A DNA stretch of 63,207 nucleotides, filler included, from Collodictyon triciliatum (lineage: Eukaryota): NCBI GenBank assembly GCA_043381765.1. It is 36 parts of 36 records of this genome, joined end to end, with 100 filler letters (N's around TTAATTAATTAA, not from the genome) between each part and the next. Parts side by side here need not be neighbours in the genome. Positions count along the whole stretch, not along the records: positions 12,358 to 14,018 come from JBHJMP010010499.1; 35 more parts are not named here. One strand, written 5' to 3'. The position numbers and the translations under genes are program-made. Shown piece by piece: positions 5,195 to 58,714 of the stretch (its first letter is position 1; each line of letters opens with the position of its first letter). Below the pieces are notes generated by a model. It was not told where the DNA came from, made no database searches, and saw only the letters and a list, made by a program, of their open reading frames with translations.

Positions 5195-8100
5195 NNNNNN
5201 NNNNNNNNNNNNNNNNNNNNNNNNNNNNNNNNNNNNNNTTAATTAATTAANNNNNNNNNNNNNNNNNNNNNNNNNNNNNNNNNNNNNNNNNNNNTGGGAA
5301 AGTGCCCTTCTCTTTTAACCATCCAAATACTAATGCATGGGACAGTTTGATGGACATTCTTGTTGGGCGATTAATGGACTTAACCTTCATGAAGACCTCA
5401 GTTCGTGTTGGGTGTCTTCTATTTTGGTCCTTTAATGAAGTTGTTCTAGGACTATATGATTGACTTTATCTATAGAAATAAGATTGGCGGTTTGGTTGGT
5501 GACCAGCAGGTAGTATGATTTCCTTTGTGTGTCGTAAAAGTTTTTGGTTCTGGGTATGCAGCACCACATCATAGTTGTAAATTTTTCAGGTGAACCTACG
5601 TGAAGGAACATGCCTTTTTGATTTCAAATATTATCTTTTCTGAAGCTCACTTAAGTTAAGAGGAGGTATAAATATAAATCATTTGATTTGCTGTTCCATT
5701 CGGAGCTTCTCATCTATGCTATGACCCTCAGTTAGATATGGGATATAGGCCTTCAATTTTTAATCAGCTGGCCAGATTAGAGAAAATTTTTTGTGCATAA
5801 GCAAATCTGGTGCGAGATTCTTGTTGGGCCCGGAACTCAGGTTTTCTCATAAGGAGTGACTGTTTTCTGATTTAATTGAGTTCCAACATGATTCCGTAAG
5901 GTTGCTTTAGTATTAGTAGTGAATATGTCATCGATTTTTTCTAGACTTTTCCTGGCATATATTTGCTACTTAATTCTTATATGTTTCAGTCAGGAAATTT
6001 TTTTATTTCGAGAGCACCTGTGAACACTCATTTATGGTATTTTCGTAATAGTATATGCGTTTAAGAACAAAAGTTTGACCAGCCTGTCCTGAGTTTGTAG
6101 CTCGCAGAGACACAATACCCCACAAGTCACTATTTTGAGTTATTTTACCCAACATCAGTCAAGGTCAAAATACATAGGTGATTTTATTTCTTATTTTAGT
6201 TCTTATTTGATTAATTGGAACCAGCAACTTTATTGTTAAATAAATAATGCATTTTAGGTATCTCTCTAATCACCGCTCGAGCCATTCAATTCATACAGGC
6301 TGTTAAAAAACCAAGTAATTCATGGTAAATTGTAAGCGAGAATCAATCATTCGAAGAGGGATATTTGCCGGGTGTTTGTGGAATTTTTGAGATTATCTCG
6401 GTCAAAATCAGTGCTGCATATGTTTCATCACTTCTCGGTTCACAAGTACATCACCTATATGCAATCCTCTCGCTATCTTTTATGATATTCCACGCCAGAC
6501 GCTCTCTGTTTTATTGGCCAACCGAGGAAATAAAACAGACAGATAGTGTGCGAATCACTCACGTGCATCCTTATTCAATGATTCATACAGCCCGAAACCC
6601 TTTTAAACTGTTCCCGTCCCATTTTCATCGGAATGGCCGACAAAAATAAGCCATTAGATAATTTCAATGAAATTTTGTTTACTTGCGTTAATAGAGATAT
6701 GTAAAGCTATAGGTATTCTGTCGTTAAAGTAAGCTTATGTTTTACCCACTTGTTGGTATTTTTGTTGGTTGGTGTAAAATCGGTGCATCTTTACAGTAGA
6801 ATAGATGCAATTTATACCTTTAGAAATACCCTAACCCTAACTGACCTCAATAATATCTATAATCATATAAGCTGGCACCTTTTTAAACATTCCCTCTAAT
6901 ATTTTGTCATATTGAAAATGAAAGTGACTAAAAACAGTGCGCCAATACGGAAGAACTNNNNNNNNNNNNNNNNNNNNNNNNNNNNNNNNNNNNNNNNNNN
7001 NTTAATTAATTAANNNNNNNNNNNNNNNNNNNNNNNNNNNNNNNNNNNNNNNNNNNNAAAAAAGAAAAGAAAAAAGAAAAGAAAAAAGAAAAGAAAAAAG
7101 AAAAGAAAAAAGAAAAGAAAAAAGAAAAGAAAAAAGAAAAGAAAAAAAGAAAAGAAAAAAAGAAAAGAAAAAAGAAAAGAAAAAAGAAAAGAAAAAAGAA
7201 AAGAAAAAAAGAAAAGAAAAAAAGAAAAGAAAAAAGAACAAGAAAAGAGAAGAGAAGAGAAGAGAAGCAAAGAGAAATGACATCAGGTTGAACCAAGAAT
7301 CCAACTGAGCAATTTTTGCTATTTGTTTTCTTCCCTATGAACCAATTGTATTTCTTCCACAACCCCTCACTCTAACACGTCAAGAAAAGAATGTCACGAT
7401 TGGACAATAATGAAGCAATTGGTTTTAATCGAATGAAGAAAATTATAGAGGCACGATTAAAGTTTCTTTTGAGTTACCCAGCATCTGTGAGAGATTTTTT
7501 GGCAAGTAAGAAGGAAAATTGCCGCACACTTATGTCACTTCTCATAAAAAAAAATTTACATACTGATCCCTTTCTTTACAAGCCTTTTATATACCCACCG
7601 ATTCCCAATAGAAATGTTGATTGAAATGGGTTAATTCGATTGAAATTCTCACATGGGTGATTTTGCTGGCAAGCGCATTTGGTTTGTCTTCTCTCGATTT
7701 TTTGGTTCTTTTTTTGGTTAAGGGCGATTCAATCAAACACTTTTGATAGGTCGAAGGATAGATTCGATTCTAAGGTTGAGTTTGTGGAATGGATGATTTT
7801 CCAAAGGAGAGAGGTTATCTACCAGCTCGGTGCAATCAAAAGCCAATGTGTTGGTGATATTGTTAGGACACTTGCTAGCAAACCTCGATCAATCAATCAA
7901 TCAATTAAGCAAGCAAGGAATCAATCCAGGAATCAATCCAGGAGTTAATCAAAGAGTCAAAGCACAAAGAATCGTCCAATCGCATTTGACCAACGGATTC
8001 CACCACAAAGAGAGAACTTGGATTTGAGGAAATTTGGATATAGAAGTGTCTCTTACAGGGGACAGAATTAAGATATGAACGGAGCTTTAATTGCTGATTG

Positions 8101-10480: not shown

Positions 10481-12197
10481 NNNNNNNNNNNNNNNNNNNN
10501 NNNNNNNNNNNNNNNNNNNNNNNNTTAATTAATTAANNNNNNNNNNNNNNNNNNNNNNNNNNNNNNNNNNNNNNNNNNNNAACTCAGTTGCCTTTGCCCA
10601 GCCTTCTTCATCCATTTCTTGATTATGTTTTTGCGATTGAATGATGGCATCTCTTGATTCTGATAGTTCCTATCGTTGAATATAAACAAAAAAAAAATTG
10701 TAATGGCGAGGATGCATTAACATGCACATGTAAAATATTTAATATTGAGAAAACAGATAATTGCGTTTGATTAAAGAGCAATATTGTTTTACATCAAAAT
10801 TGATACCTTATAGTAGGTCGATCTTTCTTGGCTGATGGTTTCATTCCTGGTCATAAAATGGTTCCGTAAGATGTCCATTTTCATATCATGATTTCGTATC
10901 CTCTCCATGGCTTGCTAATTCAGATGGGAACATCGAAATAATTTCAGATATGTTTATGAGGACACTATCTGTTTAAGTAATATTATAAAAATTACGAGGA
11001 GCTGTTTTCTGAGGCTGTTCGAGAAATCCCTATGTCTCTTGAGTTCTGTTTGTAACTCAGCCAACTTTTAAGCACACACAAAAAAAATTAAACTAGATTA
11101 AACTAAAGTAAAGAAGAGAAAATAAAGATGTTTGCTCTCTCTCTCTCTCAGGTGCTTTCATCTGAAATAAGAGTTGGAAATCCTTTCAAAAATATTCAAG
11201 ACCAGCTACCTTTTCGTCAGCGTCCTCGAAAAGATAAGAGAACTTTAAGTCCTTCACTATGAGAGCAGCTGTGTTGTCAAAAATATACGATATAACTTCA
11301 TGGATATGTCTGAAATCTGTTCCGGTGATAGATGATTTTCCATCCTCGCCCTGTATATGATTTCCACATATGATTTCACAACTTCGGGACAAAGATTATG
11401 AAAATCAGCGCAATAATAGATATTAAGAACCAACCTTTTTTGATTCGCTTTTTCTGTGGGGCGATTTCTTTTCATTTTAGAGTTTGTTTTTATGAGTAAA
11501 AAACATAATTAAACATCGATGATTTATTCCTTCAATTTTCCCTTCATATAACTTTTCTCCAAACAACAACGATATTAAAATATCGCCAAAATATCACATA
11601 AGCAAAATACACGTGCACATGTACATAATAGATTAGCCGAACCCTTGTTGATGAATCACTTGTGCCAGAATCAAGCTCAGCGGCGAGAGTCCCGAAAACT
11701 TTGGCCAATTGAGTGCGAAAACTTAACATACGCAAATCAACCTGCTGAAAAAGTAAATCGCGACGAGGAAGATCCACGGCAGGCGGTGCAGTTCCTTGTG
11801 AGCTACCTTCGGTGTCATTGCTAGCCGTGGGCGATAGTTGATTTTGTTGGGCCAGTCGAATCTGTTATTTACCAGTCACCAAAGGAATCAAATATTATAT
11901 ATGGATAGGAACCTTTGTTACTGTTCATGTGCATATAAAAAATTATACACAACACTGAATTTAGCGATTAGAACTGCTATCAAAGTACACAATTTCATTT
12001 GTATTCGACCACAGTGTGATTAAACTAGATTAACACACTAAATTAACACACTAAATTAAAACACTAAATTAACACATTACACTTTAACGTAATTGTTAAC
12101 TCATCAATTACTTTGATAGATTTTTTTTTATCGAATTGGTCAAATGAGTTTTTGTTTCATTAATCATTAATATTTCTTTTCTTCACTCTTTTTTTTA

Positions 12198-12257
<60 letters not shown>

Positions 12258-13315
12258 NNNNNNNNNNNNNNNNNNNNNNNNNNNNNNNNNNNNNNNNNNN
12301 NTTAATTAATTAANNNNNNNNNNNNNNNNNNNNNNNNNNNNNNNNNNNNNNNNNNNNGATAAAAGATAAAAGATAAAAGATAAAAGATAAAAGATAAAAG
12401 ATAAAAGATAAAAGATAAAAGATAAAAGATAAAAGATAAAAGATAAAAGACAAAAGACAAAAGATAAAAGAAAAAAGATAAAAGACAAAAGATAAAAGAC
12501 AAAAGATAAAAGATAAAAGACAAAAGATAAAAGACAAAAGATAAAAGATAAAAGATAAAAGATAAAAGATAAAAAAGAAAAAAGAAAAAGAAAAACAAGA
12601 ACCACAGAGTAGCTGCGCGCACAGTGCTGTTTTGGAGAGCCCGTGGCAGAAGCCTTTCCCAGCGCAGATCGAGCGCGTAAATCAAATGTTTGAATTTGAA
12701 ATTTGGGGGAAAAATCGCTTTGGCATTTGGACGGGCAATGTCATAGAATAAATTGAATTCATGTCATATTAAGAATGAATACGCGGTCGAGGTCTCTACT
12801 CCGAAGGCAACAGAAACAAAGATGGGGTTGACGAGTGAATTATATTCCATTATGTTCCAAAGATATCGTAACAACGAGGTAATAACAAACCAAATTTCAC
12901 ATTTCATTCACCGCAAAATAATCAGATGACACTCAGAAGTACAAGGGGCTACTGTAGAAGGGATGACTGAGTTAAAAGGATGCATAATTGGTTTGTAATA
13001 CAGGAGGAATAGTCATTTTTTTTTAAAAAAAATTTTTTTTAACAGGATTGCATGTTCTGTAATCCCAAGATTTAGCTTCGACAAAAAAAACTAATTAAAT
13101 ATTGTAAAATTTTGACAAGTGTATTTGAAAATTTTGAGCAGAAAAAAAATCATAGACAAAAAGCCTTGCTTGACATGTTTTATTTCTTCTATATTTTTTT
13201 AACGCCCATTTTAAAAATAAGGATACTTTAGCAAGTAAATTTGTTGGAAGATACTTTTGCACGTTGGGTTCCTATAGATGCTACATAATTTGATCAGCAC
13301 ATATACCACAATATT

Positions 13316-13375
13316 ATCAGCATGTCGTGTTACTTTGAATCGAATAAAGGAAAAAAAAATCAGCATGTCGTGTTA
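13316..13375 (+). mobile_element. Ultra-short retro-insertion CTTTGAATCGAATAAAGG(A)8 with a 17-bp target-site duplication
   Basis: Perfect direct repeat ATCAGCATGTCGTGTTA at 13316-13332 and 13359-13375 flanks the insert. Confidence 0.85.
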
Positions 13376-48020: not shown

Positions 48021-48074
48021 GAATTGCTATTCTTTTTTCCTTAATTCGATTCAAATACGACGAATTGTTATTCT
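48021..48074 (-). mobile_element. Third copy of the ultra-short insert (minus strand) with a 13-bp target-site duplication
   Basis: TTTTTCCTTAATTCGATTCAAA (1 mismatch to the reverse-complement consensus) between GAATTGCTATTCT (48021-48033) and GAATTGTTATTCT (48062-48074). Confidence 0.75.
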
Positions 48075-57416: not shown

Positions 57417-57488
57417 TCCGATATGGTGTAGTCGGTAGCACGTATGGCTCTCACCCATACAACCCGGGTTCGATTCCCGGTATCGGAA
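57417..57488 (+). tRNA. tRNA-Glu (anticodon CTC)
   Basis: Acceptor stem TCCGATA/TATCGGA, anticodon arm TATGG-CTCTCAC-CCATA, T arm CCGGG-TTCGATT-CCCGG. 72 nt, no encoded CCA, oligo-T terminator downstream. Confidence 0.96.
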
Positions 57489-57509: not shown

Positions 57510-57951
57510 TCCTCATCTGGGCACGCCAGACACTCCCAAAACACCGCGCCCTACTGCTCAATATCTCCAACAGAGAGCTGTGGACAGGTGCGCGCGTAGT
57601 TCATGCAGCAACGACCTCTCCAGAATGCACCAAATGCCATAGTTGAGACGACTCTATCGAACACACATTTGTGAAGTGCTCTCTGGCTCAAAAAGTCACA
57701 GAATCTACCCACAAGATGCTCTCTGAGCTTGACAATGCTCCCAACGGACTCAGCGCGTCCGACATCCTGTTTGGCACACCAATAACGAATGACCCACGAC
57801 TCTAGAATACTCTGGACAGTCACAAGGGGACATAAGCTGTGGTTCTTATGGAGTGTGTGCATTCTCTCGCTCCAATGATTCACCCGATCGAGAAATCAAT
57901 GTATCGAGGCTTGAAAGCGTCATGCAATATAGCTTCTTGAATAGTTTGCTG
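57510..57951 (+). mobile_element. 5'-truncated L1/Tx1-type LINE, C-terminal zinc-binding (zf-RVT) region, degenerate
   Basis: LIWARQTLPKHRALLLNISNRELWTGARV....SPECTKCHS*DDSIEHTFVKCSLAQKV...SDILFG matches iW...p.k...l.t..r...CxxC....t.eH.f..C..a..v; stop at 57644-57646. Confidence 0.75.
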
Positions 57952-58185: not shown

Positions 58186-58714
58186 TTGCTCTGGTATTCA
58201 TCGAGGTGAAGAAACTCGTTTGTTTTTCCTTCGGGCAGCTCAAAGGAAGAGGGGATAGGGAAGAAGGATTCATAAAGGTCTCGAACAGCATCCAAAACCT
58301 TCAAACGCAAAACATCACATAAAAACCTTAGATATCCAAGCAACAAAAGTACTTTATACAAAAAACCTGACCTTGAATCAAATAAAGGAAAAACATAAAG
58401 AAAGAAAGGAAGAAGCAATTGCATTTTCAAATATACTACGTTATTAATCGATAAATCCGATGTATACCGGGATATTTGGTTCATCTCCTTGCATGTTGTC
58501 ATTTATGCACACAAACTTTAGCTTGCGTTTCCGGACGCCATCCAGTTGAGGGAGAACCTTTATGTTCAAAAAGATATATTTTTGCAGATTTCTTTCTTTC
58601 AATGAAACAATATTTCGTGACATTTTTGTCGGACTTTTGTAATGCATAACTGAGCGAGTTTTATGATTGCAGTTGAATGCAGCTTCAAGATTACAGTTAA
58701 CGAAATGAAAAGAC

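Follow-up and report, generated by a model that had tools for sequence, protein, structure and literature searches.

The short A-tailed inserts dispersed through the 63,207 bases of DNA analysed here (the window) consist of the terminal 3' bases of an ordinary L1-like LINE that also lives in the genome of the window, and their 5' ends fall together at 17 to 20 nt from the tail, a clustering that is real in this small sample. On balance, we regard these stubs as probable abortive retrotransposition products of that A-tailed, L1-like LINE, the copying of which would have stopped at a preferred point.

The window is composed of 36 separate contigs of 1,651-1,677 bases each, one of which is interrupted by an N gap, ordered by size and joined by spacers of the form N44-TTAATTAATTAA-N44; the description of these contigs as unrelated in the first-pass annotation was therefore right. 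Their G+C content ranges from 27 to 53%, microsatellites are found at many contig ends, and the long open frames contain domains of the eukaryotic type (Ephrin_rec_like repeats, TPR_12, GST and PDDEXK_6).

The motif (C/T)ACTTTGAATCGAATAAAGG, followed by five to nine A, is present in five of the contigs. Four of these sites (13333, 36183, 48034 and about 20292) had been named in the first-pass annotation, and each of them holds the insert described at the right coordinates; the fifth copy, at 58370-58393, was absent from that annotation. At 13333-13358, on the plus strand, the stub CTTTGAATCGAATAAAGG is followed by A8, and its 18 nt (19 nt if the final A of the duplication is counted in) coincide fully with the end of the LINE found in the metagenome locus L002. 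This insert is flanked by a perfect target-site duplication of 17 bp, ATCAGCATGTCGTGTTA, located at 13316-13332 upstream and at 13359-13375 downstream. The copy at 36183-36207, also on the plus strand, consists of CACTTTGAATCGAATAAAGG and A5 and is identical to the 3' terminus of L002 in 20/20 nt; it lies between two perfect copies of the 17-bp duplication AAGATTTTATTGTTTCT, at 36166-36182 (upstream) and 36208-36224 (downstream), the first two A of which are ambiguous with the tail. An older stub on the minus strand, at 48034-48061, begins with 6 unmatched bases and continues with 17 nt of LINE tail, one of them mismatched, and A5. Its duplication measures 13 bp and is found as AGAATAACAATTC at 48062-48074, upstream in the orientation of the element, and with one mismatch at 48021-48033 downstream. 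The two remaining copies are aged: the one at 20292-20314 on the minus strand (CACTATAATCGAATAAAG and A5) shows one mismatch and one gap with respect to the LINE tail and a decayed flanking repeat of about 12 bp, its duplication having been judged by eye, and the one at 58370-58393 on the plus strand retains 19 nt with two mismatches and A5, with no clear duplication. Two copies with perfect cores and duplications, one with single mismatches and two decayed ones make up this spread of ages, from which stub insertion has been active over time. About 45 nt downstream of the stub at 36183, and on the same strand, a T-run ending in AG, 17 nt and then GTATG (36250-36279, plus strand) resemble splice sites, a likeness at the level of motifs only.

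A search of the window with a 17-mer, allowing up to three mismatches, returned 6 matches versus 0.66 expected, and 6 matches were reached in 0 of 100 shuffles. The motif matches at 7423 and 47055, with three mismatches and neither a tail nor a duplication, are probably due to chance. In addition, the whole window was scanned on both strands for runs of at least five A in which the following 12-17 nt were repeated no more than 120 nt upstream; once tandem repeats, coding repeats and one rejected candidate had been set aside, only the inserts at 13333, 36183 and 48034 remained. The rejected candidate, at 10628-10647, is coding-like sequence with an imperfect repeat. Within the window, short A-tailed and duplicated inserts are specific to one sequence. 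The high genome-wide copy number proposed in the first-pass annotation is plausible, given five copies in 59.6 kb and many more in two metagenome runs (X2 and X3, see below), although the window is a biased sample of short contigs.

Copies in other data, as well as an empty site, were found when positions 12800-13900 of the window were compared with the Logan contigs of four freshwater or subsurface metagenome runs (X1-X4), which left large portions of this interval uncovered. In record 3 of X1 (a freshwater metagenome contig of 151 nt, 95-99% alike), the sequence corresponding to 13251-13315 joins that of 13359-13444, and 13316-13358 is missing. The 43 bases skipped equal the 17 bases of the duplication plus the 26 of the insert, and 14 letters fit either side of the junction. 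This contig, which holds ATCAGCATGTCGTGTTA in a single copy, is an empty site; since a close relative thus carries the site with one copy of the duplication, the insertion at 13333 is real and recent, and the search for empty alleles that the first-pass annotation had called for was successful for this copy. At least six contigs of X3 and at least one of X2 match only about 13328-13364, their flanks differing from the window on both sides. The four downstream loose ends listed for X2 and X3 are all different, and two upstream loose ends among those listed for the same runs bear no LINE UTR. The letters of one X3 locus admit the reading GGTT, ATCTTTACAAAATAAA, the stub, an A-run and again ATCTTTACAAAATAAA, which corresponds to a 16-bp duplication at TT/A (the slash marks the nick).

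A further copy came to light in a protein. P0013, a fragment of a LINE ORF2, contains a 14-residue insert with respect to P0001 and L002, in which FFSFIQFK stands beside a repeated EREIN, and the antisense translation of a window stub reads FFSFIRFK. P0013 carries a stub nested in antisense inside an ORF2 copy of its own parent LINE; the added sequence amounts to 42 nt there, and to 43 and 42 nt in the two young copies of the window. The gene caller had read through this nested stub and rendered it as those residues.

The parent LINE was identified by scanning public metagenome contigs for the 20-mer, which yielded six loci (L001-L006), only one of them, L002, being genuine. Its minus strand comprises the C-terminus of an ORF2 and a C-rich 3' UTR, and ends in ...CTCGCTACACTTTGAATCGAATAAAGG and A10. 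The open frame of L002 matches zf-RVT (PF13966, E 1.5e-7), and a second frame, 54% identical to P0002 across 124 residues, takes the ORF2 on to a point about 93 nt from the tail. An exhaustive HMMER search gave 14 relatives of the L002 frame, the close ones being fragments, and longer homologous proteins sought for this ORF were not found. Four full-length relatives at 29-38% identity (P0009-P0012, 1,226-1,275 aa) carry the Exo_endo_phos and RVT_1 domains, and in three of the four zf-RVT is located at the C-terminal position where the L002 query aligns. Judged by its domains, this arrangement would be that of an APE-type, L1-like ORF2, the endonuclease and reverse transcriptase domains of the parent itself having been observed only in these four relatives. 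In the 3' UTR, about 30-55 nt before the tail (L002 positions ~150-180), four sense-strand C-runs of at least three (CCC..CCC..CCC.CCCC) were noted by eye, so that the first-strand cDNA would carry a motif of the G-quadruplex type.

The remaining matches, L001 and L003-L006, were attributed to chance, as they lack a tail or duplication and at least three of them read as coding sequence. A scan of viral contigs for the motif returned nothing; of two scans of genome contigs the first was empty and the second gave two loci in Bacteroidota MAGs, where the letters lie inside apparent coding sequence. The bacterial contigs L001, L007 and L008, among them the two Bacteroidota MAGs, share the same 20-22 letters by chance, with neither tail nor duplication, and the similar letters that follow in all three (...TTACCATGGCCAG-like) suggest one conserved coding motif.

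The L1-type remnants that the first-pass annotation had reported in the window are indeed there, in the form of two truncated copies of the parent LINE. One of them, at 57532-57951 on the plus strand, covers the end of ORF2, is 91% identical to the reverse complement of L002 at 351-770, and runs off the contig end; the other, at 15880-15984 on the minus strand, is 93% identical to the reverse complement of L002 at 693-797, and runs off the contig start. These copies start at different points and would measure about 700 and about 360 nt, respectively. The 3' end of the LINE is known from L002 alone, which belongs to another sample, and the long copies of the window leave their contigs before the tail. 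A tRNA-Glu(CTC) gene (57417-57488, plus strand), followed by a T-run, is located about 44 nt upstream of the truncated copy at 57532-57951; this single case is reminiscent of LINEs that target tRNA genes.

At the level of sequence, the motif corresponds to the exact last 20 nt of L002, which answers the question, raised in the first-pass annotation, of whether a LINE or a SINE ends in it. Over the terminal 19-20 nt of L002 the young stubs show no mismatch, and they therefore do not call for a new element of their own. The separate family of micro-retroposons that had been put forward is not upheld, as the parent LINE is also present in the form of ordinary truncated copies. A SINE was discarded because the unit measures 17-20 nt and neither ARAGORN nor Rfam revealed in L002 a head of tRNA, 7SL or 5S RNA origin with an internal pol III promoter, and a processed pseudogene, which would match the end of a host transcript, was discarded because the sequence upstream of the unit in L002 is LINE ORF2 and UTR.

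The same annotation had proposed that all copies stop at almost the same 5' point, and this holds in the small sample available. Counted from the tail, the 5' ends in the window lie at -18/-19 (13333), at -20 (36183), at -17 plus 6 extra bases (48034), at -18 to -20 (20292) and at -19 (58370), the end point at 48034 being less sure owing to the 6 unmatched bases at its 5' junction. Elsewhere, the 5' end lies at -20 for the X3 locus, where T replaces C, at -18 for two X2 copies, and at -18, as deduced from the protein, for P0013. Consequently, 9/9 readable short copies stop at -17 to -20, and none is shorter or lies between about 21 and about 350 nt. The length classes are bimodal, either about 20 nt or at least 350 nt, with long copies that start at about -700 and -360.

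These counts refer to a sample of nine readable short copies plus three long ones, with the bounds of the length range picked after the data were seen. For the five window copies, the probability of such a cluster is about 1e-4 under a uniform null of 6-60 nt; under the best geometric null, which assumes a constant fall-off, it is 1.9e-5 for the 17-20 range and 3e-3 for any range of 4 nt, all three values being post hoc. Copies under about 6 nt would be unrecognisable. Shorter tails, of 6-16 nt, were sought in the window by means of the last six tail bases and an A-run (TAAAGGAAAA), and none was found, given that 3/3 matches to TAAAGGAAAA carry the whole unit. LINE UTR was likewise sought upstream of the five window copies, and none of them showed any similarity to it, the local alignment scores being 6-7 versus shuffle means of 7.6-8.7. 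The first-pass annotation had reasoned that the inserts would be merely truncated LINEs if their lengths ranged continuously back into a LINE 3' UTR; a LINE 3' end and longer truncated copies are present, but a continuous range of lengths was not seen.

The marks of L1-type target-primed reverse transcription that had been invoked for these inserts are present: the A-tail, duplications of 13-17 bp, TT/A at 4/5 readable sites, and the empty site. Tails range from A5 to A9 in the five window copies. The duplications measure 17, 17 and 13 bp in the window and about 16 bp at the X3 locus, take the form of the repeated EREIN in P0013, and are decayed or missing at the two aged copies. The first nick falls at TT/A at 13333, 36183, 48034 and the X3 locus, and at CT/A at 20292, five sites being few for a consensus.

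Under the reading that we favour, the LINE ribonucleoprotein would cut the bottom strand at TT/A and prime on its own RNA, at the short A-tail; copying would extend over no more than the terminal 17-20 nt of the 3' UTR, the top strand would be nicked 13-17 bp downstream, and the short cDNA would be joined to the upstream end. Target-site duplications would in this way come to enclose an insert of about 20 nt of LINE tail and 5-9 A. Such a stop, at 17-20 nt from the tail, would be non-random, and the stubs would be distinct as a class from the ordinary truncated copies, which measure several hundred nt. As for its cause, we favour a failed passage from initiation to elongation after the second strand had already been cut, a cause and an order of nicks that we infer from the inserts. 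Second-strand nicking during first-strand synthesis is described in a report on human L1 (PMC7617806), which makes it plausible that a stalled complex is sealed early into a short insert. A stable fold that could account for the stop was sought in the last 199 nt of the LINE RNA and was not found, the z-score being -0.96. In L002, ARAGORN detected no tRNA-like structure, and Rfam at E up to 1 gave no ribozyme and only two weak lncRNA chance matches.

Two contigs bear paired stubs. In record 7 of X2, two stubs lie 21 nt apart on one contig of 151 nt, the 21 letters between them not being LINE UTR, and in record 11 of X3 a second stub begins directly after the downstream duplication. If we may guess from these two contigs, pairs with a duplication-sized spacer would fit the reuse of the same nick sites.

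A stop of the enzyme is not the only way to obtain a short unit with a near-fixed start. The LINE transcript might be cleaved about 20 nt before the A-tail, or degraded from its 5' end to a bound protein, and the LINE enzyme would then copy the remnant to its end. The tail of about 20 nt plus the A-run would in this case exist as a discrete RNA, produced by specific cleavage or by protection of the 3' end in a ribonucleoprotein, and amplified to thousands of copies, and the stub would act as a defined nano-retroposon dependent on the machinery of the LINE, an origin that we consider conceivable but rather unlikely. The clustering of the 5' ends at -18 and -20, the (C/T)AC with which the copies at 36183, 20292 and the X3 locus all begin, and the bimodal, ungraded lengths are consistent with such an RNA, as are the 6 unmatched junction bases of the copy at 48034, which resemble the extra bases added at the end of a template. 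However, no ribozyme, tRNA-like or stable structure lies beside the cut site, the ends differ by 1-3 nt, and the present data do not separate a discrete RNA from an enzyme stop.

Ordinary random 5' truncation could also leave an apparent cluster through ascertainment, if long copies break the assembly, tiny ones go unrecognised and samples are few. Short-read assembly breaks at long repeats, so that only short copies sit inside contigs; both long copies of the window are found at contig ends, the contigs are all of about 1.65 kb, and many have microsatellite ends. Moreover, truncated LINE copies in mammals are heavily skewed to short lengths, as reported for the mouse (PMC11084082). Nevertheless, assembly should be as easy for copies of 21 to about 50 nt as for those of 20 nt, and copies of 6-16 nt could be found by the tail motif, but neither were seen; assembly bias cannot account for the missing copies in these two ranges. 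Together with the probabilities of 1e-4 (uniform) and 1.9e-5 (best geometric) for the five window copies, and with the same ends shared by copies from three other data sets, this makes random truncation a poor candidate. It is more improbable still, to the point of being scarcely credible, that the 20-nt unit is an independent element that inserted by accident where the LINE in L002 ends. A single LINE 3' end is at hand, and stubs do enter LINE copies, as in P0013, but in L002 the UTR passes directly into CACTTTG... with no intervening A-tail, a promoter cannot fit in 20 nt, and the presence of the LINE and the stubs together in one genome fits the relation of a parent to its product.

The abortive products that we propose share with the 5'-truncated L1 copies of mammals the LINE 3' end, the A-tail, a duplication that varies in length (about 13-17 bp) and, at four of the five readable sites, the TT/A nick. 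In the mouse, 60% of the L1 copies with a 3' end are shorter than 400 bp (PMC11084082), and in humans 76/99 de novo L1 insertions were reported to be 5'-truncated, the median length being 712 bp (PMC11702581). In contrast to these, the stubs measure about 20 nt, far under the reported lengths and under what repeat annotation usually detects, their 5' end is near-fixed instead of spread, and their A-tails are short (5-10 A), even where the duplications are perfect.

The suffix element of Drosophila, which is a few hundred bp long, resembles the stubs in being a short interspersed unit that is found both as separate copies and at the 3' end of a LINE. This double existence, as a short retroelement and as the terminus of the F element, is described in PMC1868783 and PMC3136478. 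Unlike suffix, the stub is 17-20 nt of UTR, too short for coding sequence or a promoter. SINEs with LINE-derived tails are likewise short, non-autonomous and mobilised by LINEs, with an A-tail and duplications. Platy-1, of about 100 bp, has been called the shortest known primate SINE (PMC4864456); the stub is five times shorter, has neither a head derived from an RNA gene nor room for an internal promoter, and, unlike SINEs, is identical to the terminus of the LINE itself. Within the titles and abstracts of the literature searched, we found no description of a discrete class of LINE-tail inserts of about 20 nt.

Inserts of about 25 nt escape standard repeat annotation, so that an entire class of LINE products may be missing from current counts. 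Should the clustering at 17-20 nt be borne out across the genome, it would mark, in natural insertions, a specific early failure of target-primed reverse transcription or a specific processing of the LINE RNA, and the present element would offer a means of studying it; if it fails, the stubs would represent the short extreme of ordinary LINE truncation. Each stub adds a canonical AATAAA and an A-run to non-coding DNA, and hence a dense, polymorphic family could affect polyadenylation; being still polymorphic, such a family could also act as a population marker. Should the stubs instead derive from a discrete RNA, they would be the shortest defined retroposed unit known. They would also steadily supply non-coding DNA with new AATAAA signals and A-runs, and would be a footprint, left in the genome, of the hold of the LINE enzyme on its template.

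Some contigs of the window showed features of their own. The G+C content of the contig at 36990-38646 is 53%, far over that of the others, and it contains an open frame for a Nu/URE2-like GST (37366-38013), the best relatives of which are of the eukaryotic type, with 74-76% identity, and others of which are found in green algae, Amoebozoa, oomycetes and chytrids. For the PDDEXK_6 protein, the nearest Atlas clusters, mostly of Streptophyta, score 0.89, a value to be taken as a lead only. On the minus strand, an open frame of 462 aa at 24679-26011, made of tandem repeats of about 21 residues (QDFGFTKT.IYENESKEASNT-like), leaves its contig, and the whole contig at 40504-42159, also on the minus strand, is one open frame with 14 cysteine-rich Ephrin_rec_like repeats (Pfam E 2e-84).
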